DNA of 64,000 bases from an uncultured Candidatus Saccharibacteria bacterium (GCA_964464405.1 CAYXFX010000002.1:44027-108026); one strand, 5' to 3'; shown: positions 3-15,774, counted from the first letter of the stretch. A program made the numbers and translations. The notes: generated by a model from the sequence alone, not told the origin.

Positions 3-1061
3 TTGGAATTTGTAAAAGGCGCGTTTGAAAGAAATTACGTAAATGAGGGCGTGCTCGCCTCGGAATTTGAGAAAAAAATCGCGGAGCTTGTCGGCGCAAG
101 ATACGCAGTCGCGACGACAAGCGGGACGGTTTCAATTTTCCTTGTTTTAAAAGCGCTTGGCGTAGGCTCCGGAGACGAAGTTATAGTTCCCGACGCAACC
201 TTCATTGCCACCGCCAATGCAGCTGAGCTCTGCGGAGCGCGGCCAGTCTTTGTTGATATAAACGAACGCGATTTAAATATCAGCACAGAAGCCTTTGAGC
301 GTGCAATTACTTCGAAAACAAAAGCTGTAGTGCCCGTTCACGTAACGGGTCGTGCATGCGACATGGAAACAATTTTGGATATCGCTCGCAAAAATAAAAT
401 TTTTGTTGTAGAAGACGCAGCGGAAGCTTTGGGATCAAAATATAAAGGAAAATTTTTAGGAACATGGGGAGACGCAGGATGCTTTTCTTTTTCGGCAAAT
501 AAAACGATTTCTACTGCACAGGGAGGAATGATTGTAACAAACAACGGCGCGCTTGCTTCAAAAATACGCGCACTAAAAGACCAAGGACGGACAATTAAAG
601 GCACGGGCGGAGACGATTTACATAGCTCGGTAGGATACAATTTTAAATATACCGACATTCAAGCAGCTTTGGGGTTAGGACAGCTTACGCACTTTGAAAG
701 GCGCGCAGCACGAATGAAAAGAAATTACAAAATGTATTCTGATAATTTGAAAAACATAAAAGACGTTAGAGTGTTTCCTTCCAACCCGGAAGAACTTCCG
801 CAATGGACGGATATAATCTGTCCGCGAAGAGACGAACTTGCGGAACATTTAAAAAAACAAAATATTGATTGCCGCAAATATTGGCATCCAATTCACAAAC
901 AGTCTGCTTATCCCCAGCCAGACGATAAATTTCCTGTAAGCACGAGAGTGCTCCCCAAGTCGCTCTGGCTGCCTTCGGCGTTCACATTAACAGACGAGGA
1001 CGTAAATTTTGTCTCAAACGAAATAAAAAGTTTTTTCGCTCCTAAAATAAAAAGTATATAG
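3..1061 (+). CDS. DegT/DnrJ/EryC1/StrS-family PLP-dependent sugar aminotransferase. Truncated at the 5' end by the window edge.
   Basis: Its 352 aa align along the full length of DegT-family aminotransferases (..TSGTVSIFLVLKALGVGSGDEVIVPDATFIATANA.. and the FSFSANKTIST lysine region). The ORF runs to the window edge with no in-frame start, so the start lies upstream. Confidence 0.85.
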   Translation: MEFVKGAFERNYVNEGVLASEFEKKIAELVGARYAVATTSGTVSIFLVLKALGVGSGDEVIVPDATFIATANAAELCGARPVFVDINERDLNISTEAFERAITSKTKAVVPVHVTGRACDMETILDIARKNKIFVVEDAAEALGSKYKGKFLGTWGDAGCFSFSANKTISTAQGGMIVTNNGALASKIRALKDQGRTIKGTGGDDLHSSVGYNFKYTDIQAALGLGQLTHFERRAARMKRNYKMYSDNLKNIKDVRVFPSNPEELPQWTDIICPRRDELAEHLKKQNIDCRKYWHPIHKQSAYPQPDDKFPVSTRVLPKSLWLPSAFTLTDEDVNFVSNEIKSFFAPKIKSI

Positions 1062-1145: not shown

Positions 1146-2165
1146 TTAAACTGCCGTAGAATGCTTGAAATACCACTCATACGTGCGGCGCAATCCTTCG
1201 TCTAAAGAAACTTCGGGTTTCCAGCCGGTGAGTGTTTGTAATTTAGAAACGTCCGCGAGGCGCCGTTTTACGCTACCAGGCGGAGAAGATTTGATGTCTA
1301 ACTCTTTTGGGCGCCAACCGGTAATTTTAAACATGCGCTCAGCTAAATCGAGCGCTGTGATTTCGTGAAAATCACCTATATGCACAGTTTCTATTGGCTG
1401 GTGGTCAGTTTTCGGAGTATCCATAAGTAAACGCATCGCGCGCACGGCATCATCTATATAACAATACGTGCGTGTTTCGTCCGCTCCGAAAATAGAAAAA
1501 GGATCGACGCTTCGTGCGATTCTTAAAGAAAATTCCGGTATTACGTGATCATATCCGGCGCGCGGACCGTAAAAGTTGTGCGGACGCACAATTATCCCAC
1601 GAAAATTATGGCTCTTCGCATAATGAATTAAAAACGGCTCTCCTATTAGTTTTGTGGCCGCATATGACCATCGCGGATTATACGGGTCGTCCACAACTAG
1701 CTGAACATTTTCGGGCGTTGGAATCGGCAGAGAGTTAAAAGCGTTAAGGGCGCCTGCGTATGCTTCATTTGATGATGTAAATAAAAATTTTCCGCCAGAG
1801 TTTTCTTTTTTAAACCATTCGAGCATATATATCAAAGAAAGCGTATTTATTCGCATAACTTCGTGCGGCATTTGATAAAAGTTTTTAGTGCCGTTAATTG
1901 CCGCGAGATGATAGACATGATGATACCCGTTTCCCAAATCGTTATACGAATTATGGTCAGTTAAATCCAAGTTAAGAAACCGAACGCGCGGATCGCAAAG
2001 CAGCGTTTTAAATTCGTCGTCCATTTTTCCACGCTGCAAATTATCTACCAATATAAGCAAAATATTTTCACCATAAGATGCAAGCAAATGCTGCGCTAAA
2101 TGGTAGCCGATAAACCCCGCTCCTCCTGTTATTAATATTTTTTTTATTTTTTCAGCCATATCCAC
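1146..2165 (-). CDS. NAD-dependent epimerase/dehydratase (extended SDR, NDP-sugar modifying)
   Basis: Has the N-terminal GGAGFIGYHL Rossmann motif and the YAATK catalytic Y-x3-K motif. Its 339 aa are typical of UDP/GDP-sugar 4-epimerases and 4,6-dehydratases. Confidence 0.85.
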   Translation of the reverse strand: MDMAEKIKKILITGGAGFIGYHLAQHLLASYGENILLILVDNLQRGKMDDEFKTLLCDPRVRFLNLDLTDHNSYNDLGNGYHHVYHLAAINGTKNFYQMPHEVMRINTLSLIYMLEWFKKENSGGKFLFTSSNEAYAGALNAFNSLPIPTPENVQLVVDDPYNPRWSYAATKLIGEPFLIHYAKSHNFRGIIVRPHNFYGPRAGYDHVIPEFSLRIARSVDPFSIFGADETRTYCYIDDAVRAMRLLMDTPKTDHQPIETVHIGDFHEITALDLAERMFKITGWRPKELDIKSSPPGSVKRRLADVSKLQTLTGWKPEVSLDEGLRRTYEWYFKHSTAV

Positions 2166-3742
2166 AAACTTTTTGGATCTTCTATTTCGTGTTTAATAAA
2201 TTTAAAACCGACGGCCTCCGCCATTTGTTTTGCTTCGCGGGGACTTAAAGAAACGCCGTATGCCCAATGCCACTTGTATGGGCCCATTCCCGTGCGAAGG
2301 TGAAGCTTTGCAATTCCTCCTGTATTTAACGTCCGGTAAAGTTCCTTAAAATAATTAGCAAGCGCTTTTTTTTGAGGCACATGCCGCAATGCTTGATATG
2401 AAAACGCCAAATCGAAGGAATTGCTTTTAAATGGAATGCTTTGTCCATCGGAAATTTGATAGTTAATGCGCTGGTCCGCAACTCTTTTTTTTGCGCTAGT
2501 CAGCATTGCGTCTGAAATATCAATTGCAGCAACACTTACAAAATGCTTCGGGAAAAATTCCGTCATTCTACCAAGACCGCATCCGATTTCAAGCGCAGAT
2601 GTTTTTGAATTTAGTATCTGGAATAATAATTTGTCTTCTTCTATATATTTTTTATAATCAGAAAGTCCGGTCTCCCGCAATTCAAATTCACTCACGTCTT
2701 TTCCTGACAAAGTTTTCGTATTTACATAATATCTCGCGTTCTTTTCTGCAAGTTTATTCCAAATATCACGCACATCGGATAAATCTCTGTCGGGAATCAC
2801 GCGCGTGAGCGCTTCTGATAAAAATCTAAATTTTTTCCTTGCCAGCTGCACCCCCCGTAAAGAATTAAGTTTATTCCACAAAAAAATACCGGTTCCTACG
2901 TCTCCCATAGCCTGCCGCTCATCGGCCCAAGAAGAAAACCATTCAGGAAGCTCGTTTTTTTTCTCAAATTCGCGATGCGCTAAATTACTTTTGTATGCCG
3001 CTTCCATAACCATGTTTCTTCCGCCGCTTCTGAAAGCGCGGGCAAATGCCCGCAGGTCTTTTGGTAAACAATGTCCCCCAAACGATTTTCCGTATCTTAA
3101 ATAACTTTTTTTCTCAAAAATAAAATCTATTACATCAGAGTCCTGAGTTAAATCTCCAAATTCATTAACAAATGCAACGCGCAGCGCATTCCAAATATTT
3201 GAAAGATATTTAATATAAGAAGCCTGTTCAGGCGTTCCTGTAAAAACTCTGTTTGACCTTATCCGCCATGAATCAAAGAATTCCGGTTCTTTTTGTAGCA
3301 TTGTTTTTGCGCCCAAAACAAAAAATTGCGGATTTAAGCACTCTTCCACCGCATGCTTTTCATGCAGAAACTCAGGCAAATAGAAATGAAAGTTAAGCTC
3401 TCGCAAACTTTGCGGTAAAACAGTCGAACGCAAAATAATTTTCCCCTTTGTTTCTTTTAACGAATCGAGTGCTTTTTTTATTAAACTTAAGTCCTGCGCG
3501 CCCTCTTCACTCACCTTATCCCCCACGCAAACGATATAAGAAGTGTCCACACTGTCCTTTTCTAAAGGGCTCGCAAGCGGCTGAATTTTTTTGTATAAGT
3601 CTTCGAATTCCACATAACGAAAAACTGGCGGCACCACGTCGTAATAATAAACTTCTTCGCCCATTTTTGTAAGCGCAATTGCGTTTGCCTGCCCCACCCA
3701 TCCGAACCCGACAACAACCATTCTTGGCTTTCCATTTTGCAT
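2144..3742 (-). CDS. Fusion protein: UDP-glucose/GDP-mannose-dehydrogenase-like N-terminal domain plus C-terminal class I SAM-dependent methyltransferase
   Basis: The N-terminus has VVVGFGWVGQ NAD-binding, PEFLHEKHAVEE (compare PEFLREG in UDPGDH) and GGHCLPKD (compare the catalytic GGSCFPKD). The C-terminus has EIGCGLGRM.. and ..FDLAFS.. methyltransferase motifs I and II. It is a single 532-aa ORF. Confidence 0.7.
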   Translation of the reverse strand: MQNGKPRMVVVGFGWVGQANAIALTKMGEEVYYYDVVPPVFRYVEFEDLYKKIQPLASPLEKDSVDTSYIVCVGDKVSEEGAQDLSLIKKALDSLKETKGKIILRSTVLPQSLRELNFHFYLPEFLHEKHAVEECLNPQFFVLGAKTMLQKEPEFFDSWRIRSNRVFTGTPEQASYIKYLSNIWNALRVAFVNEFGDLTQDSDVIDFIFEKKSYLRYGKSFGGHCLPKDLRAFARAFRSGGRNMVMEAAYKSNLAHREFEKKNELPEWFSSWADERQAMGDVGTGIFLWNKLNSLRGVQLARKKFRFLSEALTRVIPDRDLSDVRDIWNKLAEKNARYYVNTKTLSGKDVSEFELRETGLSDYKKYIEEDKLLFQILNSKTSALEIGCGLGRMTEFFPKHFVSVAAIDISDAMLTSAKKRVADQRINYQISDGQSIPFKSNSFDLAFSYQALRHVPQKKALANYFKELYRTLNTGGIAKLHLRTGMGPYKWHWAYGVSLSPREAKQMAEAVGFKFIKHEIEDPKSLWIWLKK

Positions 3743-3782: not shown

Positions 3783-5510
3783 TTAATACTTAATTTTATA
3801 TAAATAAAGGCTTTCCGATCTTAAAACTTCTTCGAGCCCAGTTATAAATTTTAAGTCCCATTCGGGATTTTTCTCTTTATCCCAAACGATATAATTAACT
3901 CCGTATTTTCTTAATATTTCAACGATATTGTTTTTATTTTTTGAAATATCCGAGTATTTCGCCTCCAGTTCCTTTTTTACTTCTAGCTCACTTTTCCCGG
4001 TTTTATGTGCATTAAATCCGGCAACGGTTCCCAAAAGCATATAGTAATAGTTGCGGTCCGTAAAATTCTTTTCTGCGGTCTTTACATTTGAATAATAATC
4101 AAAAAAGTTATTTCTGGCGTCTTTATTTAAATATGTATAAACGTAAAATACATCATAAATTTTTTCTTCCGGTGTATTTAAAGTTTGTGCGCCATCTGCC
4201 CAAAAAAGGTCATGCGGAGTATGCACAATAAACAGAAGCTGATCTAAATATTGGGACGCAAGTATTACGCCCGGCGTGCTGTCTTTATTTAAATAATCAA
4301 TTGCCGCACCATAGCGTTGCAGATATTTTTTTATTTCGAATGTTGCAAATGTTCCGCGGTATTGATGGATTCCCATGTATCCATAAATTAATAAAATAAT
4401 AGAACAAAACAATATATTTTTATATTTAAAACTTTTTAATAAATCAGCCGCAATTATTAATACAACAAAAATCGAAACGGGAATGACAAAATACCAAAAA
4501 TAATGCCATGGCTGTATTTCTCTGCCAGTGATAATATGCTGATTTAGGACAAACCAATTTCCTAAAAATAAGCTGAAAAGCAAAATAGAATTTTTTTGCA
4601 TGCGGTTTTTATAAAAATACGGAATTAGCAAAAAAACAGGAACCAAAGCGATTTTGCTGAAAACAAATGAGCCGCTCAGTGTCTCCCCGGAAAAAAACAA
4701 AAGCCGCCGTCCTAATTCGGAGTTAATCACAGAAAAAAGCTTAATTAACGGATACGCACCAACTGCTAATGCCGTAACTCCGACAAGCACTATTTTTTTA
4801 ATTTGCCCAAAATCGCGCAACACCGCGTTTAGCAGCAAAGAAACAAAAATGACCGCTCCAGCATAAGTCCATGCGTAAAAATAAACATAAAATAACGCGC
4901 CTAGCGTCGCTCCAGACAAATAAATATATTTTTTATTTGTTTCTTTTAAACACTTATTAAAAAAATATAAAAAGAGAAAAAGAAAAATCGCGCTAAAAAG
5001 CGGACGTATAGGACGAGCATAAACATTAAAATCCGTGCCGTATCCGCTAAAAAGTATCGGATATCTAACAATCAAATTATATCCTCCGATAATAAAAACC
5101 GGCGCAAGAACCGAAACAATTTTGTCAGCCGTTAATTCAAGGGCTAAAAAATAAATAATAACTGAAAGCAAAAATACGCCAATAAATCCCCATATATTAA
5201 AAACGGCTTCAACATTGACATCAGTGGCCCCAAACAATTTATATGGAAACATCAGCAACTGTTCCACGTAAATTTGTTGGACATTGGGCCCATCTTTTCC
5301 TTCTTTTAAAATAAAATTCCCGAGAGAATGTCCGTCTAAAATTTCTCTGCCGTGAGCAAGATACTGCCACTCATCCGATTCAAAATTTCCTGAATTAATT
5401 CCTCTATAATCGCCTCCGGCTAAAAATGGGAGTATTATATTCGGAAAAAACACCAAAAAAGCAATGGCAAGCGCATTTACCAACATAAACTTGTGTTCCT
5501 TAAATTTCAT
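3783..5510 (-). CDS. Large polytopic membrane protein, paralog A of three; candidate GT-C-like glycosyltransferase of unknown family
   Basis: About 12 predicted TM segments. It shares motifs with 5500..7224 and 12960..14783: G-D-Y-R/Q-G-I-N..D-E..Y..G...L-x-G-N-x-L-G-N, FYVY-x-YAWT, (H/Y)T-x-HDLFW, and a C-terminal NIVE-x-L-x-KY-x-V-x-YI-x-WD. The start is taken at the internal Met (MKFKEHKF...) by alignment with the paralogs; the ORF track extends to 5543. Confidence 0.75.
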   Translation of the reverse strand: MKFKEHKFMLVNALAIAFLVFFPNIILPFLAGGDYRGINSGNFESDEWQYLAHGREILDGHSLGNFILKEGKDGPNVQQIYVEQLLMFPYKLFGATDVNVEAVFNIWGFIGVFLLSVIIYFLALELTADKIVSVLAPVFIIGGYNLIVRYPILFSGYGTDFNVYARPIRPLFSAIFLFLFLYFFNKCLKETNKKYIYLSGATLGALFYVYFYAWTYAGAVIFVSLLLNAVLRDFGQIKKIVLVGVTALAVGAYPLIKLFSVINSELGRRLLFFSGETLSGSFVFSKIALVPVFLLIPYFYKNRMQKNSILLFSLFLGNWFVLNQHIITGREIQPWHYFWYFVIPVSIFVVLIIAADLLKSFKYKNILFCSIILLIYGYMGIHQYRGTFATFEIKKYLQRYGAAIDYLNKDSTPGVILASQYLDQLLFIVHTPHDLFWADGAQTLNTPEEKIYDVFYVYTYLNKDARNNFFDYYSNVKTAEKNFTDRNYYYMLLGTVAGFNAHKTGKSELEVKKELEAKYSDISKNKNNIVEILRKYGVNYIVWDKEKNPEWDLKFITGLEEVLRSESLYLYKIKY

Positions 5511-7224
5511 ACAGATGAATGTTATTCTCACTTTTAATTTCATGAAGTGTATTTATAAAAGACAAATCCCAGCTAGAATAAATATTTTCATCCCACAAAA
5601 TATACCGAACTTCATATTTTTTAAGCATTTCGACGATGTTTTTAGGACTCCGCGCCAGTTTGTTGTATTCCTCTGAAAAATCATTTAATAACTTTTCTCT
5701 TTTTTCTAAAAGTTCCGGATCTTTTCTTCCTAGTCTGCGATAATATTCATAGTGGTCAAATCCGGATAAATATCCTTCTATGCCTTCATAAACCGCGTGA
5801 GTCGGCGCATTATTAATAAAATCATTTCTTGTATTTTTATTTAAATATACATAAAGATACAAAGCGTCTTTAAAGCGCTGCATAGGATTGTAATTCATTG
5901 CGGCAAAATTGTGCCAAAAAAGATCATGCGGAGTATATATATTTACGAGCTGCGCATAAGGGTCGTCTCCCGCTAAAACAACTTCTGACTCTTTTTCTTT
6001 ATTTAAAATTTCCAGCACACTTTTATATTTTTGGTCGTAAAGTTTAGATTCGTAAGTTGTGCCAAAAGAACGGTATTGTCCTATGGCCGTATTTAGCAAC
6101 GCAAGCAAAATCAGTAAACCAAAACTTATTTTTCTTAAAAAATTATAATTTTCGGACAGCTTCCATAACATATAGAAGGTCGTAATAATAAAAAGCGGCA
6201 CAATAAAAAACCAGTAATAATGATTTTGTTGTAGCATTCGTCCCGTAATTATCTGCTGGTTTAAGGCGACAAATCCGGCAAGAGCCACAGAAAGCACAAA
6301 AGGGGCATTCGAATCCTCGCGGTCTTTGTAAATAAAAAAACAGAAAAGAACCAGTGAAAGCAACCCGAGATTATTCATTATAGGAGCGCTTCCCAGTGAC
6401 GACCATGAAAAATAATAAAATTGTTCACCTGCCGGCGAATTCAAAAAGTTAAAAATACGCAAAAGATACAAGCTTCCGATAAAAAATCCCAAAATATTTA
6501 TCCAGAAAACCCTTTTTGCGTTGCGGAAATCCTTCCAAAAAAGAAGGGCTAAAAATAAAATTCCGTTTAAAACTAAAGCAAAAGTCCAGGCATAAAAATA
6601 AACATAAAAAAGTAGCCCGTAAAGCGCGCCGGCAAAAAATATCGTTTTAATTTTTTCTGATTTAAGTGCCTTTACTAAAGCAAGCAAGTAAGAAAAAAAT
6701 GCAAGTGAGCCAATATAAGGATATAAAGATCTGCCGTACACATTAAAATCCTCGTAAAAAAAAGTTTTGTTGTATACTATTGAATAACCGCCGACAACAA
6801 AAAGTGCGGCGGATATTGCGAGAAATTTATTCGCGCTAATTTTCAAAGTTAAAAAATAAATTAGCAGAATTAAAAGAAATACTCCTATAAAATTATAAAT
6901 ATTATAAAGCGTTACAATATTTATTTGGTCCTTCAGTCCAAGAAAATATAAAGGTCCAACAAGCACATACTCGTTTATCGTAAAGTAATAGTCTTGTTTC
7001 GTACTTTTCCCTTCTTTTAATGCGGGGTTGCCCAAATAATTGCCGTGAAGCACATCGTTTCCGCGTGTTAAATAAAGATGTTCGTCTGTACCAAAATGAG
7101 CAATGTTTATTCCTTGGTACGAATCTCCAGCTTTAAAATAAAATGCAACTAGAGGAAATTCTATAAGCAGAGCCAAAATAAAGGACGAAATTAGTGCGGC
7201 TCGATGTTGTTTTAAAAATTCCAT
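5500..7224 (-). CDS. Large polytopic membrane protein, paralog B
   Basis: 574 aa with the same conserved motifs as paralogs A and C (AGDSYQGINIAHFGTDEHLYLTRGNDVLHGNYLGN; FYVYFYAWTF; YTPHDLFW; KNIVEMLKKYEVRYILWDE). Confidence 0.8.
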   Translation of the reverse strand: MEFLKQHRAALISSFILALLIEFPLVAFYFKAGDSYQGINIAHFGTDEHLYLTRGNDVLHGNYLGNPALKEGKSTKQDYYFTINEYVLVGPLYFLGLKDQINIVTLYNIYNFIGVFLLILLIYFLTLKISANKFLAISAALFVVGGYSIVYNKTFFYEDFNVYGRSLYPYIGSLAFFSYLLALVKALKSEKIKTIFFAGALYGLLFYVYFYAWTFALVLNGILFLALLFWKDFRNAKRVFWINILGFFIGSLYLLRIFNFLNSPAGEQFYYFSWSSLGSAPIMNNLGLLSLVLFCFFIYKDREDSNAPFVLSVALAGFVALNQQIITGRMLQQNHYYWFFIVPLFIITTFYMLWKLSENYNFLRKISFGLLILLALLNTAIGQYRSFGTTYESKLYDQKYKSVLEILNKEKESEVVLAGDDPYAQLVNIYTPHDLFWHNFAAMNYNPMQRFKDALYLYVYLNKNTRNDFINNAPTHAVYEGIEGYLSGFDHYEYYRRLGRKDPELLEKREKLLNDFSEEYNKLARSPKNIVEMLKKYEVRYILWDENIYSSWDLSFINTLHEIKSENNIHLYEI

Positions 7225-7898
7225 TGTTTTTCCGGTTTGATTATTAAAAAATGGAAAGTGTTAAAATAACACGGCCGCAAAATCAGGGAATAAAAAGGAT
7301 AAATTAAAAAAAATATTATTTTGAATCTTTTTTTTAATTTATCTTCACGAATATCATAAACTGCAAAACCTGTTTTGTTCAACATTTTTTTCGCTCTTTT
7401 ATAAGTAAAGTAATGCATGCTTACTAATTTCTGTCTTCCTCCGTAACCATCCGGTTTTTGCCGCCGAGCAAATTTCAAAACGGCTTCGGTCCATTCCCTT
7501 GGAATCCAGTTGATAAAATAGATATGATAATGATAGTCATAAACTCCGAAACGGTTGTGAAAGCTAATATAAGATTTGCCTCCCGGCTTTAAAACTCTGA
7601 AAATTTCTGCGCACATTTTTTTTGGGTCATCAACATGCTCCGTAACTTCCGAGGAATTTATAAAATCAAACATATTGCTTGAAAAAGGCAGCTCCTCCGC
7701 CTTGCCTGCAATAATATTTCCGCGCATACTTTCCGGTTTTACGTCAACGCCATAAGTTTTATAACCTAGACGTTCCATCTCTTCCAAAAATCTTCCGTCA
7801 CCCGCTCCTATATCTAAAACTAAACCGCCTTTTTTTAAAAACTGTGCGCAATATTCTGAATGCCTCATATAAATGTTTAGTAATATAGACCTCTCCAA
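7212..7898 (-). CDS. Class I SAM-dependent methyltransferase
   Basis: VLDIGAGDGRF (motif I), KTYGVDV, and FDFINSSEVTEHVDDP..VLKPGG (motifs II and III). Confidence 0.8.
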   Translation of the reverse strand: MERSILLNIYMRHSEYCAQFLKKGGLVLDIGAGDGRFLEEMERLGYKTYGVDVKPESMRGNIIAGKAEELPFSSNMFDFINSSEVTEHVDDPKKMCAEIFRVLKPGGKSYISFHNRFGVYDYHYHIYFINWIPREWTEAVLKFARRQKPDGYGGRQKLVSMHYFTYKRAKKMLNKTGFAVYDIREDKLKKRFKIIFFLIYPFYSLILRPCYFNTFHFLIIKPEKQWNF

Positions 7899-8617
7899 TG
7901 GTTAATTTTTATTTGTAATAACTCCTTCGCAGAACTTACTATGTCCGAAAGTACTCTCACTCGAGAATCATCATCATGCGCCCAGCTTACGGGCATCTGC
8001 CGAATTGGAATTTGTTTAAGACGTGCAATATATAAAAGCTCCGTATCAAAAGCCCATCTGTTAATCCGCGCCCTGGGAAATATTTTTACCGTTGCTTCTT
8101 TTGAAAAGCACTTAAATCCGCATGTAAAATCGGGGATCCCTGGAACAAAAAGGTTAGAGAGCTTGCTAAACCCTTGTCCTAAAAAAATTCTTAAAAAAGA
8201 TTCGCTTCTTTGTACTTTAGATCCACTAAGTCTCCGGCTTCCGATAATAATTTGGTCAGAAGGCTCCATAAGTAATTTTAATTGTTCAAATTCCGAAAGC
8301 GGAGTTGCTAAATCAATATCAAAAAAAATGACCCAGTCACTCGATGCGGCCAAAGCTCCCTGCCTTACAGCGTACCCCTTTCCGGTGTTTTTTTTGTATT
8401 CTACTATCTTAAACCCATACTTTGACTTGTAGTTTTCTAAAATCTTTTGCGTATCGTCACGAGATCCGTCATTTACAAAAATAATTTCCGTTCGCTCCGG
8501 AACTTTAGAAAAAAACTCGCAGATGCTGTCTATATTTTTCGGGATCCTTTTTTCTTCATTATAAACGGGAATTACAATAGAAAAAGAATGGGGCATTTTA
8601 AAAAAAATATTTCGCAA
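7877..8617 (-). CDS. Family 2 glycosyltransferase (polyprenyl-phosphate sugar synthase-like, DPM1/GtrB/ArnC type)
   Basis: FSIVIPVYNEE...EIIFVNDGSRDDT...DIDLATP. The likely true start is the internal Met (MPHSF..). Confidence 0.85.
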   Translation of the reverse strand: MRNIFFKMPHSFSIVIPVYNEEKRIPKNIDSICEFFSKVPERTEIIFVNDGSRDDTQKILENYKSKYGFKIVEYKKNTGKGYAVRQGALAASSDWVIFFDIDLATPLSEFEQLKLLMEPSDQIIIGSRRLSGSKVQRSESFLRIFLGQGFSKLSNLFVPGIPDFTCGFKCFSKEATVKIFPRARINRWAFDTELLYIARLKQIPIRQMPVSWAHDDDSRVRVLSDIVSSAKELLQIKINHWRGLYY

Positions 8618-9644
8618 ATTTTAATATTCCCTGTTTCCAAGGTACTCGGTGAGATACACCACTTATATCGCCGAACTTATTTTTATTTTCAAGATACCAT
8701 TCAAAATTTCTCACAAGCGCATCTTTATTTGAATATTTAGGGGTATACCCCAAAATACTCTCCGCTTTCTCTATAGAAACAAAGGAGTCTTTCCCGGCAG
8801 TTTCGTATACCCACTTGTAAAGCGGCGAAAGATGAAGTATTTCTAAAAATCGCAAAGTCCAAATCATAGGAGCTGCAGGCAACCCTATGATTTTTTTTCC
8901 GAAACCGGCATGATCCAAAACCGCTTGATAATCTTCGCGCATAGTTAAGAAGTTCCTTGCGCCAATATTAAAAGTATCGTTCACTTTTTCTTCTGGCAAT
9001 GTAAGCGTGAGCCAAATAGCTTCGCACAAATCTTCGACGTCCAGCAACTGATATTTATTTTTTCCGTTGCCTATCATAGGGAAACCACAACCTGTACTTG
9101 CCCAATCATAAAATAAAGCAAATACCCCCAAACGTTCTGGGCCTATAAAAGATTTTGGACGCAAAATAGGAACAATAGCTCCTTTTTTTCTTGCTTCTTT
9201 ACAAAGCTCTTCTGCCAAAATTTTTGCTTCGCCGTATGGTCCCACCCCTTGCAATTTATCGGTTTCATATATCGGGTGATGGTCGGGAATCCCATAAACA
9301 GCCGTGCTTGATATATGTACGATGCGCGGAATTTTATTTTTTATAACGGCGTCTAAAATATTTTTTGTGCCGTTAACTTCCGTTGAAAAAATATCTTCTT
9401 TGCTATAAAGTGGAAGCGCTGCTGCGGTATGCACTACCGCATAAACATTGTGAGTTGCTTCTTCGACATCTTTTACATTTCGTACATCTCCCGTAATGCA
9501 CTTAACTTGATTTTTTTCTAAGTAATCAAAAGGCGCGATATCCAAAGACACAACCTCGCATCCTTTTTTTAATAAAAAGCGCGCGAGGTTAATTCCTAAA
9601 AATCCAGCTCCACCGGTAATTAATATTTTTTTATCGCCATCCAT
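8598..9644 (-). CDS. NAD-dependent epimerase/dehydratase (SDR)
   Basis: KILITGGAGFLGINLARFL plus a YGEAK catalytic motif; 348 aa. Confidence 0.85.
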   Translation of the reverse strand: MDGDKKILITGGAGFLGINLARFLLKKGCEVVSLDIAPFDYLEKNQVKCITGDVRNVKDVEEATHNVYAVVHTAAALPLYSKEDIFSTEVNGTKNILDAVIKNKIPRIVHISSTAVYGIPDHHPIYETDKLQGVGPYGEAKILAEELCKEARKKGAIVPILRPKSFIGPERLGVFALFYDWASTGCGFPMIGNGKNKYQLLDVEDLCEAIWLTLTLPEEKVNDTFNIGARNFLTMREDYQAVLDHAGFGKKIIGLPAAPMIWTLRFLEILHLSPLYKWVYETAGKDSFVSIEKAESILGYTPKYSNKDALVRNFEWYLENKNKFGDISGVSHRVPWKQGILKFAKYFF

Positions 9645-10045
9645 AATTTATAAGCTATATTATCAATCAAATAAGTTATTTTTACAAACAAAGGTTCTCT
9701 TCCAGAGATTTTTCTTCGCACCATCATAAAATCAGAGCCTATATTTTTAGCAAACAGCCCGTCCGTCAAAAATTTATCTCCTATTACAATCGTATTTTTA
9801 CTTTTTATTTCTAAATTTCCCAAAGCCGATCTCCACGGTTTTCTTTTGTTGCTTCCTTTGTTACTTAATATGTGGACCTCATTATTCCTTTTTAATTCCT
9901 CTATCTTATGTAAAACTACTTTGCTTATGTCTTTGTCTCCATCCGGGCGCAGGGTGCCATCAACGTCTAAAATGATACACGCTCCAGAAATCGCGCCGAT
10001 TTCCTCAAAAAATTGCGGGTTTTCTCTTTTTTCACTACCCAGCAT
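9620..10045 (-). CDS. HAD-superfamily subfamily IIIA (YqeG-type) phosphatase
   Basis: ILDVDGTL motif I, ILSNKGS motif II, and KRKP...VIGDKFLTDG motifs III and IV; 141 aa. Confidence 0.65.
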   Translation of the reverse strand: MLGSEKRENPQFFEEIGAISGACIILDVDGTLRPDGDKDISKVVLHKIEELKRNNEVHILSNKGSNKRKPWRSALGNLEIKSKNTIVIGDKFLTDGLFAKNIGSDFMMVRRKISGREPLFVKITYLIDNIAYKLWMAIKKY

Positions 10046-10901
10046 AAAGTATAATTCCAGCAGAAACTATTAGCCAAATAAAAACAGTCACGAGCAGATG
10101 CTTATCAAAAAGCAAATCGTCAGTTGGACCGTCGTCTATTGTTTCTTTTACACTGATTAAAAATAAATATCTAAATAGTCCGTAAAGAACAATTGGAATA
10201 GTGACCATGAGAAGTTTGCTATGTTCTGAACTAAATGTATAAAACGCGTAAGTTATTATAGTTGAAGGAAGAACAATCATATTCATCTGGTCAAGCAACT
10301 GTGGGGAATATTGATTTAACCCAGTGCGAGTTAAGCTGTTTTGAGGATACGCAAGCTCGTTTTTCCTTTTAGAAATTCCCAAAAAAAGCGTGAGAAAAAA
10401 AGTAGACAAAATCAGCCATTGAGAAAAAGTGACTCCGATCGCAACCGCTCCAGCAATTACGCGTATTAAAAATCCAGCAGCAACAACAATTACATCGATA
10501 ATAACCACGCGCTTTAAATAAAAAGAATAAAGAATATTCAGTAATATATAATTTGCAATAAGCATTGCAAAATATGGATTAATAAAAAGTGAATTACCCA
10601 AAGAGAGTACGATTAGAAGCGCTGCGACAAGCCAAGCGGTATTTTGACTAAGTTTGCCAGAAGCGATCGGGCGGCTCCTTTTTTTAGGATGATTTCTATC
10701 CTGTTCAAAATCAAGCAAGTCATTAACTAAATAAACGGCGCTTGCAGCCAAACAAAAAAGAATGAAAGCAAAAACAACCGTCAAAAGTTTCGAAAAATCT
10801 GTAAATTCTTTTACAAAAATTATCGCAGCAAAAAGAAAAAGATTTTTAATCCATTGCTTGGGACGCATTGAGATAAACAAATTTTTTACGATTTCCTTCA
10901 T
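10035..10901 (-). CDS. UbiA-family prenyltransferase resembling decaprenyl-phosphate phosphoribosyltransferase (DPPR synthase)
   Basis: Multi-TM, 288 aa, with the motif LVNDLLDFEQDRNHPKKRSRPIASGKLS (N/DxxD...D plus the basic patch characteristic of 5-phosphoribosyl-1-pyrophosphate:polyprenyl-P transferases). Confidence 0.75.
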   Translation of the reverse strand: MKEIVKNLFISMRPKQWIKNLFLFAAIIFVKEFTDFSKLLTVVFAFILFCLAASAVYLVNDLLDFEQDRNHPKKRSRPIASGKLSQNTAWLVAALLIVLSLGNSLFINPYFAMLIANYILLNILYSFYLKRVVIIDVIVVAAGFLIRVIAGAVAIGVTFSQWLILSTFFLTLFLGISKRKNELAYPQNSLTRTGLNQYSPQLLDQMNMIVLPSTIITYAFYTFSSEHSKLLMVTIPIVLYGLFRYLFLISVKETIDDGPTDDLLFDKHLLVTVFIWLIVSAGIILYAG

Positions 10902-10962: not shown

Positions 10963-11697
10963 CTAGCTTAACCACTTCTCAAAATCGGAAAGAAATTGGT
11001 TTACGACTTCTTCGGTTTTAAAGTGATTTATCATATCGGGAAAATATTTTGGAGGGACTGTTACAATGTGCGCCCCTGCGAGCCTTGCATCCCGCACGTC
11101 AATCACTCCTCGCATGCTTCCTGCAATAATTTCTGCCGGAATCTTGTCTTGGTCAAAAATTCTGCGAGTCGCTTGTACAACTTTATAAGGGTTGAAGTCA
11201 TTTTTATCTAGCGCGCGTCTATTTTTTGCCTCGTCCCGTTCTTTGGACATTTTTTCATCTAGGCCCCCGTCCCGAATTCTTCCCCAAAAAAGACTGACAT
11301 ATTTTGCTCCGGCACGCGCCGCCATAACTGCTTGCGTAACATTCATGCAGGCCGTGCAATTTACAGAAATTCCTGCCTTGCTTAATTTTTTTATGGTTTC
11401 TAATTCATCCCATCCGACCTGAACTTTAATGCTCATCTGAGGATAGTTAAAATGGTTCATCATGTGGTGTGCTTGTTCAATTATCGTTTTTGGATCCCTC
11501 GAAAACACTTCAACACTAAGATGAATGCCGGGCTGATACTTATTTATAAGTTCTATAATTTTGCCGATATGCTTCGCAAGTGAAGATTTCGGCTCTTTTG
11601 CTAAAAGAGAAGGATTCGTTGTAATCCCGTGCGCAAAACCGCGCCTTAACGCTTCCTCAATGTCAACTAAGTTTGCCGTATCAATAAATATTTTCAT
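10963..11697 (-). CDS. Transaldolase / fructose-6-phosphate aldolase family (TalC/Fsa-like)
   Basis: MKIFIDTANLVDIEEA...GITTNPSLL, with a Schiff-base lysine region and TIM-barrel pattern; 244 aa. Confidence 0.8.
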   Translation of the reverse strand: MKIFIDTANLVDIEEALRRGFAHGITTNPSLLAKEPKSSLAKHIGKIIELINKYQPGIHLSVEVFSRDPKTIIEQAHHMMNHFNYPQMSIKVQVGWDELETIKKLSKAGISVNCTACMNVTQAVMAARAGAKYVSLFWGRIRDGGLDEKMSKERDEAKNRRALDKNDFNPYKVVQATRRIFDQDKIPAEIIAGSMRGVIDVRDARLAGAHIVTVPPKYFPDMINHFKTEEVVNQFLSDFEKWLS

Positions 11698-11733
11698 GCA
11701 ATTTTATATTATCAAATAAATTTTAAAAGACTA

Positions 11734-12300
11734 CTAAGAAGTTTGTATAATTTTTTTTATTAATTCTGTAGCTTCCGGCAAATCAGAAACATGGTAATCT
11801 GCTTCGACGCCCAAATTTTGTTCACCATTAATCAAAATTGTGCTGACTCCCGCAGACTTTCCTGCTTCAATGTCGCTTCCGCTATCGCCCACGATAAAAG
11901 AACCTTTAAGATCGATCCCCCATTTATTTGCCGCGGAAAGCAACATTCCTGGTTTAGGTTTTTTGCAATCGCATCCGTCATTTCTTCCGTGAATACAGAC
12001 ATAAACGTCGTCGAAAGGAAGTTTTCCAATATCTTTCATTATTAAATTGTGATCTTCTTGGGAAAGAAGTCCGTATGTCAGATCCGGCTGGTTAGTTACC
12101 AAAATTTTTAGAAATCCCAGACCGCCCAATTTGCTTAATTCGTCGTTCACACCAGATTTTATTCTAAATTCCTGATAGCTCCAGGGGGCCGTCCACCTTA
12201 CTTTCTTGCCAAGAACTTCGCAATTTTCTCCGCGATCAACAACTTCATTAATTACTCCATCTCTGTCCAAAAAAACCGCTCTTTTTTTTAAAGGTAACAT
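11734..12300 (-). CDS. gmhB: D-glycero-D-manno-heptose 1,7-bisphosphate phosphatase (HAD, GmhB)
   Basis: VFLDRDGVIN motif I, the zinc-binding C-x-H-x(6)-C-x-C motif (CIHGRNDGCDCKKPKPGM), and GDSGSD motif IV. Confidence 0.8.
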   Translation of the reverse strand: MLPLKKRAVFLDRDGVINEVVDRGENCEVLGKKVRWTAPWSYQEFRIKSGVNDELSKLGGLGFLKILVTNQPDLTYGLLSQEDHNLIMKDIGKLPFDDVYVCIHGRNDGCDCKKPKPGMLLSAANKWGIDLKGSFIVGDSGSDIEAGKSAGVSTILINGEQNLGVEADYHVSDLPEATELIKKIIQTS

Positions 12301-12305
12301 GTTAC

Positions 12306-12926
12306 TTAAATTATCTGCGGCGTCTTATGAATTCCCTCCCACTTGCCTTCGATCATTTTTAATTTGGGATGAAAAACCATACTATGCCACAAAACCGCCT
12401 GCCACGACTCCGCATGCGCCGTTACATTTTCGTGGTTTACTACAGGTACCAAAATGCAGGCATCCGCGACTCGCGCTGTGTGCCCGCCGTCTCTTGAAAC
12501 AATTCCTACCACCCTTGCTCCCATTTCCTTTGCGTGGTCTAGGGCATGCACAATATTTGTGCTCACTTTTTTTTCGGCATTTCCACCGCCTACTGAAAAA
12601 ACCATGACTACATCTTTTGGACCGATATTATTTCTTTCAAGCCATCTTACAAAAACAGAATCCCACCCGTCGTCATTCACACGAGCTGTTAATTCCGCGA
12701 CGTTATCTGTCGGCGTATAAGATTCTATATGCGCGATTTTTCTAAAATCGTTTACCGCATGAGAGGCGTTCGCAGCTGACCCCCCTACGCCAACTATAAA
12801 AAGTCTGCCTTTGTTATCTCTTGCGTTCCTTAGGATATCTACCGTCTTGTGAATCGCGCTTTTATCTACCTTTTTCGTAATTTCCGCGACTTCGTTTAAG
12901 TAGTTATCTATATAGTCGTTTTCCAT
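12306..12926 (-). CDS. gmhA: Sedoheptulose-7-phosphate isomerase (SIS domain, GmhA)
   Basis: RLFIVGVGGSAANASHAVNDF SIS motif; 206 aa; immediately adjacent to gmhB. Confidence 0.85.
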   Translation of the reverse strand: MENDYIDNYLNEVAEITKKVDKSAIHKTVDILRNARDNKGRLFIVGVGGSAANASHAVNDFRKIAHIESYTPTDNVAELTARVNDDGWDSVFVRWLERNNIGPKDVVMVFSVGGGNAEKKVSTNIVHALDHAKEMGARVVGIVSRDGGHTARVADACILVPVVNHENVTAHAESWQAVLWHSMVFHPKLKMIEGKWEGIHKTPQII

Positions 12927-12959
12927 GGTTTACTTTTATATAACAGAGCGCGCTTTCAT

Positions 12960-14783
12960 CTAGTTACTCTTTACTTTATATAGATATATGTTGCCTTCGC
13001 TAGTTAAAAGAGCCAGATTTCCCAAAATTGGGCTTAAATCCCATTCGGGACTTTTATTTTTATCCCAAACAATAAAATTTACTTCATTTCGTTTTAAAAT
13101 TTCAGCCATACCATTCGGATTTGCGGCTTTTTTATAATTATCGAACAGATAGTTTATCGTTTCCTCGCGGCTTTTTACAATCTTGGGGTCTTTTAATCTT
13201 ACACGTATATTATATTGATCGAAATCGACTCCGGATCTAAAGCCAGCAATATAACTATAAATCAAAGGATAATAGCTGTTTTCACCAGTAGTTCCGACAA
13301 GGCCGAACCCCTCATCAATTTTGCGCATTTGTTCCACAAAATTATTTCTTGAGTTTCTGTCCATGTAAGCATAAAAAAAGAGTGCATCTTCTAAACGCTT
13401 GTAAGGGGTATTAAATACAAATGCATTATTGCCCCAAAATAAATCGTGGCCAGTATAAACCGAAAAGAATCTCCCGTAATAATGTTCGGAGGTTAAAACT
13501 ACGCCGGGTTTTTTTTCTTTTTTTAAATAATCAATAATTGGACGGTAATTCTGTCCGTATTCCTTTATTTCCCATGTGGCCATCATTCCCTGATACTGCT
13601 GGCGCGTAGCGGCAATAAAAGCGGCAACAATAATTATTCCTAAAATCCATTTGCCATATTTTTGCAGTAAAGCAGAAACCTGTTTTTGATAATTTGCAAA
13701 TTTCCACAAAAGATACGATCCTACAACGATTGAAGTTGGAATAGTAAAGTACCAGTAGTAGTGCATAATCTGGGGTACTTTTCCGGTAAGCACTTGTTGG
13801 TTGAGGGTTAACCAGCTTGCTAAAACTATTGATAGAAAAACCGGCCCGTATTTATTCCTCTTATTTAAAAGCAAAAAAAGTATTGATAAAAAAAGGACAG
13901 CAAAAGAAATTTTACTAAATGGCGCCGGGTTTCTATTTAACGTGATTCCGTAATACAAAATCTGCCTGCCTACTTCCGTTTTAGAAAATGTAAGAGTTTT
14001 ATAAATTGTAAATGATCCTATCATGAGCCCCGCAAAAAAAACTATAAACATCTTTTTAAAAAGTTCGTACTGTCGTAAAATTAAATACAAAAGAACTAAA
14101 CTTCCCGTAAACGCCAAAGCGAAAGTCCACGCGTATGGATAAACATAAAAAAGAACACCGAATAATACGCTGGGCAATATCCAATATTTTAATTCCGTCC
14201 TGTCTAAGCTTCTAACTAGTGCGTTAATATATAAAAACAAAATAAGAAGGCCGTAAACAGGCATAATTGGCCTGCTAAAAATATTTAGGCCTGGAACTAC
14301 GGCCGTAACAGGCGCGTGCGAAAGTTTTACCAATGTATATCCGCCCACTGTAAATAGCGCAACGGATACGGAAAGTAATTTATTTTCCGAAAAAGAATAA
14401 ATTAAAAAATAAATGGATAAAACCAAAAGAAAAACGCCCAAAAAAGAATAAAAAGTGTAAATCGAAGTAATATTTTCTTTTGCAAATTCCACAAAACCCG
14501 AAAATTTAAACGGGGACAAAAGCACATACTCCAAATAAACCTGGTGGGGATCTGAAGACGAGTCTTTGCCGATTTTTAAAAAAATATTTCCCAAAGAATT
14601 GCCTTCCAAAATCTCTCTTCCTTTAACAATATAATAAGCATCGTCCACCCATTCGCCGATATTTACGCCTCTATAAACATTTCCCGCCAAAATAGGAAAA
14701 ATCAGTGCTGGAGAAATAACAACTAACGACATAAGTATCGCCGTAACAATTGCAAAGTTATGAATTTTTAGGAAACCAAACAA
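12960..14783 (-). CDS. Large polytopic membrane protein, paralog C
   Basis: 607 aa with the same motif set as paralogs A and B (AGNVYRGVNIGEWVDDAYYIVKGREILEGNSLGN; FYVYPYAWTF; YTGHDLFW; MAEILKRNEVNFIVWDK). Confidence 0.8.
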   Translation of the reverse strand: MFGFLKIHNFAIVTAILMSLVVISPALIFPILAGNVYRGVNIGEWVDDAYYIVKGREILEGNSLGNIFLKIGKDSSSDPHQVYLEYVLLSPFKFSGFVEFAKENITSIYTFYSFLGVFLLVLSIYFLIYSFSENKLLSVSVALFTVGGYTLVKLSHAPVTAVVPGLNIFSRPIMPVYGLLILFLYINALVRSLDRTELKYWILPSVLFGVLFYVYPYAWTFALAFTGSLVLLYLILRQYELFKKMFIVFFAGLMIGSFTIYKTLTFSKTEVGRQILYYGITLNRNPAPFSKISFAVLFLSILFLLLNKRNKYGPVFLSIVLASWLTLNQQVLTGKVPQIMHYYWYFTIPTSIVVGSYLLWKFANYQKQVSALLQKYGKWILGIIIVAAFIAATRQQYQGMMATWEIKEYGQNYRPIIDYLKKEKKPGVVLTSEHYYGRFFSVYTGHDLFWGNNAFVFNTPYKRLEDALFFYAYMDRNSRNNFVEQMRKIDEGFGLVGTTGENSYYPLIYSYIAGFRSGVDFDQYNIRVRLKDPKIVKSREETINYLFDNYKKAANPNGMAEILKRNEVNFIVWDKNKSPEWDLSPILGNLALLTSEGNIYLYKVKSN

Positions 14784-14787
14784 TTAA

Positions 14788-15774
14788 TTAAAAATCGAGT
14801 TTTTTAACACGCGCTCCCTGCTCATCAATCCAAAAATTAACCTCGCGAAGCATAAATGGCCGAAGTGTAGCTCTCACAGACTCTTTTATTTGTTCGGTGG
14901 GACAGTAAAATAAGAAATATCCTCCGCCTCCAGCACCGATAATTTTTCCTCCCAATGCTCCAGCTTTTTTTGCCGCATCATAAATATCGTCAAATCTCTT
15001 ATTGGACATCTGTTGAGACATCGCCTTTTTTATCTTCCAGTGATTATCCATCAAAGATCCGAAGCGATCTAGATCCTCTTTCAAAAATGAGTCATAAACC
15101 GCAAGCCCAATTTTTTTTGTTTCATGTTTTAACTCCAAAACTTTTTCTTTGTCCTGCGCCGCAAGAATTGGACTGCTTTCGCGGCTTACTCCAGTGTAAA
15201 AAAGGAGCGAGTTTTTTAGAAATTTATCCGTCGTTTCTTTTTTTATTTCGGGTTTTGTAATTTTCACTTTTCCATCCTGCGTAATATCAAACACAGCAAA
15301 CCCCCCGACGGCGCATGCGTACGGATCCTGCTTTCCATCGGGAAGTCCTAAATTTTGAGTAATCTCAAAAGATTTTTCCGCAGCTTCTATATTGCTCATT
15401 TCGTTTCCTTTGTACGCGGAAAGCCCCTTAAGAAGCGCCACTATGCAGGCGCCAGAAGATCCCAAACCGGTGCCAGCGGGAGTATCAGCTTTAAAGGAAA
15501 TCGCCACTCCTCTCTTAATTCCAGTCATTTTTAAAGATTCGCGCGCAAGTTCATGATGAATATCGTCAATCGAAGGGACTGCTTCAAAATTTTTATAATG
15601 CACATGTATCAAGTCGTCAGAACGCGTTTGTTTAATAAGCACATCCATATACATATTAATGGCCGCGCTAAAAATAAATCCTCCGTATTTTTGATAGTAC
15701 GAAGGCATATCAGTCGAGCCGCCTCCCAACGGAATCCTAAACGGCACCCGGCTTAAAATTAGTGATGAATTCAT
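14788..15774 (-). CDS. hddA: GHMP-family sugar kinase; D-glycero-α-D-manno-heptose-7-phosphate kinase (HddA-like)
   Basis: GHMP motif DTPAGTGLGSSGACIVAL; 328 aa; lies between gmhA and the other heptose-pathway genes. Confidence 0.75.
   Translation of the reverse strand: MNSSLILSRVPFRIPLGGGSTDMPSYYQKYGGFIFSAAINMYMDVLIKQTRSDDLIHVHYKNFEAVPSIDDIHHELARESLKMTGIKRGVAISFKADTPAGTGLGSSGACIVALLKGLSAYKGNEMSNIEAAEKSFEITQNLGLPDGKQDPYACAVGGFAVFDITQDGKVKITKPEIKKETTDKFLKNSLLFYTGVSRESSPILAAQDKEKVLELKHETKKIGLAVYDSFLKEDLDRFGSLMDNHWKIKKAMSQQMSNKRFDDIYDAAKKAGALGGKIIGAGGGGYFLFYCPTEQIKESVRATLRPFMLREVNFWIDEQGARVKKLDF

Follow-up and report, generated by a model that had tools for sequence, protein, structure and literature searches.

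In the Arn pathway of Escherichia coli (Ugd, ArnA, ArnB, ArnC and ArnT), the ArnA protein fuses an early oxidative decarboxylase step to a late N-formyltransferase step. The route to the aminopentose of calicheamicin and AT2433 uses a dehydrogenase (CalS8/AtmS8), a decarboxylase (S9), an aminotransferase (S13) and an N-methyltransferase (S10), and ends in an N-alkylated 4-aminopentose. TviB-TviC and WbpO-WbpP-WbpS are uronate and uronamide modules, and their short-chain dehydrogenases/reductases (SDRs) are Glu-less 4-epimerases. In Haloferax volcanii, the UDP-glucose dehydrogenase (UGDH) AglM and the S-adenosylmethionine (SAM)-dependent methyltransferase AglP yield a methyl-esterified uronate (PMC3871713, PMC2952790), AglP acting on a lipid-linked tetrasaccharide (PMC2952790). 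Here, we analyzed an open reading frame (ORF) that joins a UGDH-like half and a methyltransferase half in a single protein. It is located at 2144..3742 on the minus strand of a 64,000-nucleotide stretch of DNA (hereafter the window), recorded under an uncultured Candidatus Saccharibacteria bacterium (GCA_964464405.1 CAYXFX010000002.1:44027-108026). The fusion belongs to the Patescibacteria, a large and almost uncultured share of bacterial diversity whose envelope glycans are essentially unknown. A literature search yielded no relevant paper on the fusion, on UGDHs devoid of their UDP-binding domain or on glycan enzymes of Patescibacteria.

A conserved dehydrogenase-methyltransferase fusion

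The ORF is unbroken from its ATG to its stop codon and encodes 532 amino acids in one reading frame. A preliminary description of this DNA had recognized in it a UDP-glucose/GDP-mannose dehydrogenase domain followed by a class I methyltransferase; profile matches recovered both halves and all the motifs that it quoted are present. In the N-terminal half (residues 1-262), Pfam detects the central domain of the family (UDPG_MGDP_dh, PF00984) at residues 173-253 (42.6 bits, E 6.7e-11, cut-off 25.4) and, as a partial match, the N-terminal domain (UDPG_MGDP_dh_N, PF03721) at residues 69-147 (34.8 bits, cut-off 27). The NCBIfam model TIGR03026 ('nucleotide sugar dehydrogenase') covers residues 7-257 (E 2.6e-28), aligning over model positions 2-297 of 413 only and reaching 98.9 bits, under the trusted cut-off of 189.8. 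The C-terminal half matches Methyltransf_11 (PF08241) at residues 384-477 (78.8 bits, E 4.8e-22, cut-off 21.2). The motifs GFGWVG (residues 12-17), PEFLHE (123-128) and GGHCLPKD (222-229) belong to the former and EIGCGLGR (385-392) to the latter.

From its N-terminus, the protein comprises an NAD-binding Rossmann domain (residues 1-170, nt 3233..3742, minus strand as for all that follow), with its GxGxxG encoded at nt 3692-3709 and D35, T107, E124 and E128 conserved, and the UGDH central domain responsible for catalysis and dimerisation (residues 171-262, nt 2957..3232), with K178, N182, the nucleophile C225 (codon 3068-3070) and D229. A helical linker (residues 263-320, nt 2783..2956) stands in place of the absent UDP-binding domain; it carries the invariant S270 and W272, and model confidence is low at residues 271-290. 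The remainder (residues 321-532, nt 2147..2782) is a class I SAM methyltransferase capped by helices at its N-terminus, in which motif I (ExGxGxGR, nt 2567-2590) is followed by D408, the motif II acidic residue.

The preliminary description had left room for a frameshift or sequencing error joining two separate genes. Two contigs could be read in that sense: one from a Paceibacterota (L079, 2-1080) has the end of the dehydrogenase and the methyltransferase half in different, overlapping frames, corresponding to a split or frameshifted copy or to a sequencing error, and another carries the methyltransferase half alone. The latter, a seemingly free form (P0128), lies on a fragment of 977 bp and is thus uninformative. 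In the window, by contrast, the frame is continuous, and a protein identical to the 532-residue fusion is recorded at NCBI for a Candidatus Giovannonibacteria as a "methyltransferase domain-containing protein" (MBI2020930.1). At least 119 full-length homologues, counted as best cluster representatives, were retrieved from four independent sources (NCBI, JGI, ENA and Logan assemblies), with 487-586 residues, 44-64% identity and 97-100% query coverage. Their alignment (A1) is the basis of the residue counts given here for the fusion protein: both halves are in frame in each of the 119 sequences, and the junction residues S270, W272 and W328 are invariant. Because full-length homologues from independent assemblies keep both halves in frame, we consider an artefact of assembly or a frameshift to be a negligible possibility.

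Whether the architecture exists elsewhere, a check suggested in the preliminary description, is answered by the same search. Besides the aligned homologues, when GTDB was scanned with a single genome for each species, 23 species proved to encode the full-length fusion; Giovannoni-, Magasanik-, Peregrini-, Taylor- and Kaiserbacteria are represented among them. The fusion is a genuine, conserved bifunctional protein of Patescibacteria, and we predict with good confidence that it is an active bifunctional enzyme of envelope-sugar synthesis. The TPA_asm records of metagenome-assembled genomes (MAGs) that contain this typically Patescibacterial locus (L011-L014, L019, L022, L024, L025 and others) are often titled 'uncultured Gammaproteobacteria' or 'uncultured Candidatus Saccharibacteria', and these labels look unreliable.

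The short dehydrogenase and its absent third domain

G17, D35, E124, E128, K178, N182 and the run C225-L-P-K-D229, with K228, are invariant and G12, G14 and T107 nearly so. The conserved residues of this half fall, when aligned, on those that bind NAD or take part in catalysis in solved UGDHs, and Y214, Y217 and G218, in the loop that precedes the catalytic cysteine and contacts the diphosphate in UGDHs, are also conserved. An AlphaFold2 (AF2) model computed from the alignment is confident within domains (pLDDT 91.8) and not confident for their arrangement (pTM 0.58). Its residues ~1-295 superpose on Campylobacter jejuni Cj1441 (7KWS; 3.4 A, 291 columns) and on Klebsiella UGDH (3PHL; 3.3 A, 297 columns), and CalS8 (4XR9) is among the structural matches. 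The best solved relatives by family profile are the GDP-mannose dehydrogenase AlgD (91.9 bits) and Cj1441 (86.4 bits); since both are top matches, nucleotide specificity cannot be read from them. Identity to E. coli Ugd is 22%.

The preliminary description had suggested looking for the C-terminal UDP-binding subdomain. This third domain of the family, which binds UDP or GDP (PF03720), has no Pfam match in the fusion protein at E <= 0.1. A separately encoded PF03720 was sought in the window and in 87 related loci and none was found, save in one ordinary full-length UGDH (L006), and the window holds no second UGDH-like gene. The protein thus has the NAD-binding and central domains that define UGDHs, and has neither PF03720 nor a score reaching the curated threshold. 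This absence, together with the stand-alone forms described below, goes beyond what the preliminary description had noted.

One may ask whether such a protein is a dehydrogenase at all, or an inactive scaffold or NAD-sensing domain serving a methyltransferase of stand-alone type. The TIGR03026 score, which falls under the cut-off given above, the loss of one of three canonical domains and a database name that mentions only the methyltransferase could all be taken that way. Against this, the catalytic residues hardly vary, if at all, across 119 sequences that share only 44-64% identity, and the core exists as a free protein of ~310 residues beside an SDR in at least 46 species, so that we judge a dead domain to be very improbable. 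The same conservation speaks against the concern that the N-terminal domain lacks residues needed for dehydrogenase activity. Because the catalytic residues are kept at such overall divergence, the dehydrogenase half is very likely an active, Cys-dependent 6-dehydrogenase: a truncated UGDH variant that retains the catalytic machinery of the family and, as far as its residues indicate, would work like a UGDH.

The GTDB scan further revealed that 51 additional species carry an orthologue of residues ~1-272 alone (41-57% identity). The ORF is complete, with its own stop codon, in at least 46 of them, mostly spanning ~300-330 residues (range 256-401), and a tail of ~50 residues follows the core. 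Among the 74 species loci, 23 are fused and about two-thirds stand-alone. The short dehydrogenase is, from these comparisons, a Patescibacterial family of its own, more often unfused than fused. Fused and unfused forms interleave in a crude, unsupported neighbour-joining tree of the dehydrogenase cores, suggesting that the fusion state changed more than once.

Other short forms were encountered as well. Distant relatives of ~300-330 residues that keep GGHCLPKD (24-28% identity) occur in other contexts in MAGs of Actinomycetota and Clostridia; four of them (L081-L084), from Actinomycetota, including a Mycobacterium sp. MAG, and from a Clostridiales MAG, have no PF03720 and no neighbour of the type of SDR339, the SDR discussed below. 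Shortened UGDH cores may accordingly be more widespread than the Patescibacteria. A second, divergent paralogue of the short dehydrogenase (275-320 residues, GGHCFIKD or GGKCLPKD, ~26-29% identity) is found in four loci that also hold the methyltransferase-fused form (L013 5839-6675, L019 4076-4933, L027 2535-3497 and L026 6315-7142). It directly follows an asparagine-synthase-like gene in L013 and L027, and in L019 an AsnB-like gene lies ~870 nt upstream; this paralogue may represent a separate uronamide branch. A match of 942 residues (P0237), made up of two canonical UGDHs in tandem, has no bearing here. Finally, a single ORF of 690 residues (L053 1156-3228) joins an N-terminal family 4 glycosyltransferase (GT4) to the short dehydrogenase, a unique instance in which a sequencing error is possible; in five other loci, homologues of this GT4 are encoded on their own in the vicinity of an unfused dehydrogenase.

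Having lost the nucleotide-binding domain, the short dehydrogenase might act on a sugar linked to polyprenyl phosphate or to a glycan, the methyltransferase then modifying the same carrier-linked residue at the membrane, or the coupled SDR might hold the nucleotide in an obligate complex. Such an arrangement would agree with the lack of PF03720 in cis and, over 87 loci, in trans, with a gene string that contains a polyprenyl-phosphate-type family 2 glycosyltransferase (GT2) and GT-C-like membrane proteins, and with the one GT4-short-dehydrogenase fusion and several GT4-methyltransferase fusions; AglP offers an example of a methyltransferase using a membrane-bound substrate (PMC2952790). The fusion protein itself, however, has no predicted membrane segment, its diphosphate-contact loop is conserved (Y214, Y217, G218) and the SDR partnered with it is typical of nucleotide-sugar enzymes. 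We regard this alternative as quite improbable; were it true, it would be a previously undescribed mode for the UGDH family, widespread in Patescibacteria.

The coupled SDR and the proposed chemistry

The gene next to the fusion encodes an extended SDR, SDR339 (1146..2165, minus strand, probable start ATG at 2159), translationally coupled to the fusion ORF, with whose 3' end it shares 16-22 nt. To describe its conservation, neighbours within 6 kb were clustered for the 74 non-redundant species loci; a locus flanked on either side by 5 kb or more was considered complete (18 fused and 30 stand-alone, 48 in all), and orthologues of SDR339 were called at >=50% identity. They are present in 66/74 loci and in 46 of the 48 complete ones (17/18 fused, 29/30 stand-alone), usually overlapping the dehydrogenase gene or directly downstream of it.

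SDR339 was aligned with ArnA, RfbB and Gmd of E. coli MG1655 and with the core of human UXS1 (hUXS1). Its invariant S132-N133-E134 corresponds to T118-S119-E120 of hUXS1 and to T-S-E of ArnA, "NPRWSY168AATK172" to "GPRACYDEGK" of UXS (hUXS1 Y147, K151) and to "KPRWIYSVSK" of ArnA, "HN197FYGPR202" to "FN176TFGPR" of UXS and "FNWMGPR" of ArnA, and R302 to R277 of UXS. E. coli RfbB differs at the signature positions (TDE, PSSPY, NNYGPY), and simple 4-epimerases do not possess the signature glutamate. By BLAST against the characterised references compared, hUXS1 comes first (110 bits), ahead of RfbB (89), Fcl (71), ArnA (57) and Gmd (51). A role as 4,6-dehydratase fits poorly, because such an enzyme would compete with the dehydrogenase for the C6 hydroxyl despite the near-obligate coupling of the two. 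From these residues, the balance tips slightly towards an enzyme resembling UDP-glucuronate decarboxylases, and there is a little better than an even chance that the uronate is fed to a decarboxylating SDR.

The gene convergent with that of SDR339, cut by the start of the window (3..1061, plus strand), encodes a DegT-family sugar aminotransferase (PF01041, 345 bits), as the preliminary description had stated when it placed the fusion beside an aminotransferase and an SDR; this sugar-tailoring setting is well supported. The families best matched by the DegT protein, LegC, PseC, DesI and ArnB, all comprise C4 aminotransferases. With E. coli ArnB it shares 34% identity (182 bits), so that it looks like a C4 aminotransferase, with a regiospecificity suggested by the best-matching families. 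DegT genes lie within 6 kb in 38/74 loci. They accompany 16/18 complete fused loci and 13/30 stand-alone ones (Fisher p = 0.002, uncorrected for kinship).

A pathway can be proposed from these parts. The dehydrogenase half would use NAD+ and Cys225 to oxidize the C6 hydroxyl of a hexose to a carboxylate through a thiohemiacetal and a thioester, as in UGDHs, converting a nucleoside diphosphate (NDP)-hexose into an NDP-hexuronate. As suggested by the gene coupling and the signature residues, SDR339 would then oxidize C4 and decarboxylate the product to an NDP-4-keto-pentose, which DegT might aminate at C4 to a 4-amino-4-deoxy-pentose of the 4-amino-4-deoxyarabinose (Ara4N) or calicheamicin-aminopentose type. 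The methyltransferase half would come in as an optional late tailoring enzyme that would methylate the nitrogen of the new amine or, less likely, an oxygen of the sugar, which is the weakest step of the scheme. The fusion protein would thereby contribute the first and the last steps of the route, in parallel to ArnA with its decarboxylase and its late N-formyltransferase, the uronate being only an intermediate. Taken as a whole, this Arn- or calicheamicin-like proposal is tentative, and we place it somewhat short of even.

Three observations led us to favour a late and optional methylation. First, about two-thirds of the orthologous dehydrogenases have no methyltransferase. Second, the active-site residues of the SDR, both catalytic and in the substrate site, are identical whether or not the locus has the methyltransferase, the sole difference between the groups being a conservative T233/S, an argument against methylation before the SDR step. 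Third, the fused form goes with the aminotransferase, in the proportions given above. Methylation late in the route rather than as an esterification thus appears marginally the better assumption, and the 4-amino group as the methyl acceptor is a doubtful one.

The methyltransferase half is, by sequence, an ordinary member of Methyltransf_11, in agreement with its first assignment to class I from EIGCGLGRM. In motif I, G387, G389 and R392 are invariant, G391 is kept in 118/119 sequences and an acidic residue at 385 (E/D) in 114/119; the strand-2 acidic residue D408 is kept in 118/119, and the AF2 model of this half resembles class I methyltransferase structures. Tryptophans and basic residues are also strongly conserved (W328, R392 and K479 in 119/119, R420, R483 and W527 in 118/119, W491 in 116/119), compatible with a sugar bearing an anionic group. 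Its best NCBIfam matches are the carboxyl methyltransferase BioC models (50 bits, far under the cut-off), a score of the same order as those of many unrelated methyltransferase models. An orthologue of this half (42% identity) is encoded as a free protein in one locus (L086 7001-11161), where an SDR339 orthologue (55%) lies 5 nt further on, followed by a GT4 and a DegT gene; no short dehydrogenase was found within 7 kb of the methyltransferase-SDR pair. As this locus pairs the methyltransferase and the SDR without the dehydrogenase, the SDR appears as a hub tied independently to both halves. Its vicinity also includes two sulfotransferases, a flippase and NeuB/CMP-sugar genes.

These data bear directly on the product put forward in the preliminary description, a uronic acid methyl ester or an O-methylated uronate. 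In that scheme the dehydrogenase makes an NDP- or glycan-bound uronic acid, the methyltransferase esterifies its carboxylate, and the SDR must leave C6 in place and act as a C4 epimerase or oxidase, since decarboxylation would remove the group to be methylated; the ester, or an amide where an AsnB-like enzyme is present, could shield a 4-keto-uronate from decarboxylation before transamination. The physical fusion of the two halves is what one would expect of it, the invariant basic residues of the methyltransferase could hold an anionic group, BioC heads the NCBIfam matches and AglM/AglP provide an archaeal precedent (PMC3871713, PMC2952790). The asparagine-synthase-like (AsnB-like) amidotransferases found within 6 kb in 22/74 loci lean towards the unfused form (14/30 versus 4/18), a difference that is not significant (p = 0.13-0.17). 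For this reason, and because four fused loci hold both genes, we did not retain the idea that the amidotransferase and the fused methyltransferase are mutually exclusive cappers of the carboxylate. The SDR, on the other hand, has the Glu-bearing UXS/ArnA signature and not the Glu-less motif of epimerases, and its unchanged active site is hard to square with ester substrates in some loci and free acids in others. The methyltransferase is missing from about two-thirds of the orthologous dehydrogenase loci and occurs beside the SDR where no dehydrogenase is near, and the BioC match is no better than those of unrelated models. An esterified or O-methylated uronate is therefore possible, but given the UXS/ArnA-like SDR with its invariant active site, the link to DegT and the L086 arrangement it is not favoured, and we consider the ester a plausible rival that is less likely to be true.

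The decarboxylation-amination route with late methylation that we prefer has its own difficulties. At the whole-sequence level, the profile scores of SDR339 are nearly equal against dehydratases, epimerases and UXS: its top PDB match is 8VR2, of unknown function (147 bits), followed by a Pyrococcus "dTDP-glucose dehydratase" (138), human UXS1 (137), a GDP-sugar 4-epimerase (133), and RmlB and a UDP-GlcA 4-epimerase (~125). Its signature residues are in part common to GDP-mannose 4,6-dehydratase. A UGDH core devoid of PF03720 is deprived of the usual means of holding a nucleotide sugar. DegT is missing within 6 kb in 17/30 complete stand-alone loci, so amination is not obligatory for the dehydrogenase-SDR pair, and the AsnB-like amidotransferases, whose known relatives amidate uronic acids, hint at a carboxylate that survives in some loci. 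In the methyltransferase half, the candidate base H454 is a histidine in 91 of the 119 sequences and is replaced by tyrosine (23) or phenylalanine (3) in 26. Similarity to sugar N-methyltransferases is weak (by family profile, 32.5 bits for CalS10, 6UK5, and 32.4 bits for DesVI, 3BXO), the sugar O-methyltransferases RebM/AtmM being comparable or closer (~46 bits), and the strongest solved matches are phosphoethanolamine N-methyltransferases (88.6 bits). In a library clustered at 50% identity, the nearest relatives are free methyltransferases of ~210-250 residues and GT4-methyltransferase fusions, and the closest, GT4-fused ones give no clue to the acceptor.

The surrounding glycan island and described systems

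Seven minus-strand genes that overlap or lie close together, with the fusion gene in sixth place, encode, in order, a second SDR (SDR348, 8598-9644), a 246-residue GT2 of the polyprenyl-phosphate-sugar-synthase type (7877-8617), a 228-residue methyltransferase (7212-7898), two membrane proteins, the fusion and SDR339. The GT2 weakly matches ArnC, PpgS and AglJ-type synthases (ArnC model 49.7 bits against a cut-off of 529; 30% identity over 100 residues). The two membrane proteins directly upstream of the fusion (3783..7224) are paralogues of 586 and 574 residues with 8-10 predicted transmembrane segments (TM), a soluble C-terminus of ~200 residues and a DExxY motif after TM1. With a third copy further upstream, they form a set of 574-607 residues, 35-37% identical (3783-5543, 5500-7224 and 12960-14783, minus strand; 7-10 TM, DExxY invariant), and orthologues precede the fusion gene in many loci. 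No match to the three was found in Pfam, NCBIfam or PDB sequences. An AF2 model of the upstream membrane protein, computed from the three window paralogues, is poor (pLDDT 49.8), and hhalign against E. coli ArnT gave no significant result (probability 0.6%), aligning the DExxY loop alone. These proteins may constitute an undescribed GT-C-like family, by a likeness that rests on topology. The weak resemblance of the GT2 to ArnC, PpgS and AglJ, together with the polytopic membrane proteins, suggests delivery through a lipid carrier: the GT2 would load the sugar on polyprenyl phosphate and the GT-C-like proteins would pass it to an envelope acceptor.

Just upstream of this string, a UbiA-family protein of 288 residues (10035-10901, minus strand) matches the NCBIfam model for decaprenyl-phosphate phosphoribosyltransferase (256 bits, equivalog cut-off 234), the enzyme with which the mycobacterial arabinan donor pathway begins. 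Genes for a transaldolase/FSA, a HAD phosphatase, a SIS-domain isomerase and a GHMP kinase (10963-15774, minus strand) resemble a set for the activation of heptose or another sugar phosphate. Beside a GT2 and a nucleotidyltransferase lies a 666-residue fusion of a GFO/IDH/MocA oxidoreductase and a DAO-type FAD oxidoreductase (18047-20047, minus strand); in a Peregrinibacteria locus (L005 4033-6068) the same two domains are adjacent separate genes of 313 and 365 residues, upstream of the dehydrogenase-methyltransferase fusion. Modules of a small GT2 and a weakly PMT_2-like membrane protein are repeated at 20044-20772, 23678-25111, 25982-27613 and 28922-29617. The first ~30 kb of the window are one large envelope-glycan island.

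Across the 74 loci, several GT4 families recur among the neighbours, and a TylC3-type C-methyltransferase (PF08421/PF08484) is found within 6 kb in 30. Individual loci have a formyltransferase (L005 and L006), a polysaccharide deacetylase (L004) or GtrA (L001); the window genes that were scanned revealed no formyltransferase.

The locus represents an uncharacterised sugar-tailoring module spread through a whole lineage, centred on a UGDH-family core without the domain thought to be needed for nucleotide-sugar binding. If the proposed enzymology is true, it would reveal to what extent the UGDH scaffold can be dispensed with and would place a new methylated (amino)pentose or uronate on the surfaces of these bacteria, and the database name, which mentions the methyltransferase only, would be corrected.

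Compared with canonical UGDHs and GDP-mannose dehydrogenases (E. coli Ugd, C. jejuni Cj1441, 7KWS, and Pseudomonas aeruginosa AlgD, 1MFZ), the fusion has the same NAD-binding and central domains and the same Cys/Lys/Asn/Asp/Glu/Thr set, but PF03720 is replaced by the methyltransferase or, in the unfused relatives, by the ~50-residue tail. The E. coli Arn system shares with the locus a 6-dehydrogenase and a DegT protein, and its decarboxylating SDR with TSE, PRWxY and GPR, its small GT2 and its large polytopic membrane protein have possible counterparts there, so that the enzyme logic is the same. It differs in its fused pair, which is decarboxylase and formyltransferase instead of dehydrogenase and methyltransferase, and in ArnT, to which our membrane proteins have no significant similarity; in a Patescibacterial host, lipid A is not assumed as the acceptor. 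The calicheamicin route has the same four activities in the same order as proposed here, whereas its CalS8 has all three domains, its enzymes are four separate proteins of actinomycete natural-product clusters, and the likeness to CalS10 amounts to ~32 bits. AglM and AglP are likewise separate proteins, AglM being of full length, and the fusion scores 58.4 bits against NF041297 (cut-off 670), which does not indicate orthology to AglM. With TviB-TviC and WbpO-WbpP-WbpS the locus has in common the pair of 6-dehydrogenase and SDR and, in some loci, an AsnB-like amidotransferase; in contrast to TviC, SDR339 bears the UXS-type S-N-E, and it reaches 64.6 bits against the TviC model (cut-off 760). 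The parts of the locus and its overall pathway logic all have precedents in these systems, and it is not a new kind of system or principle.

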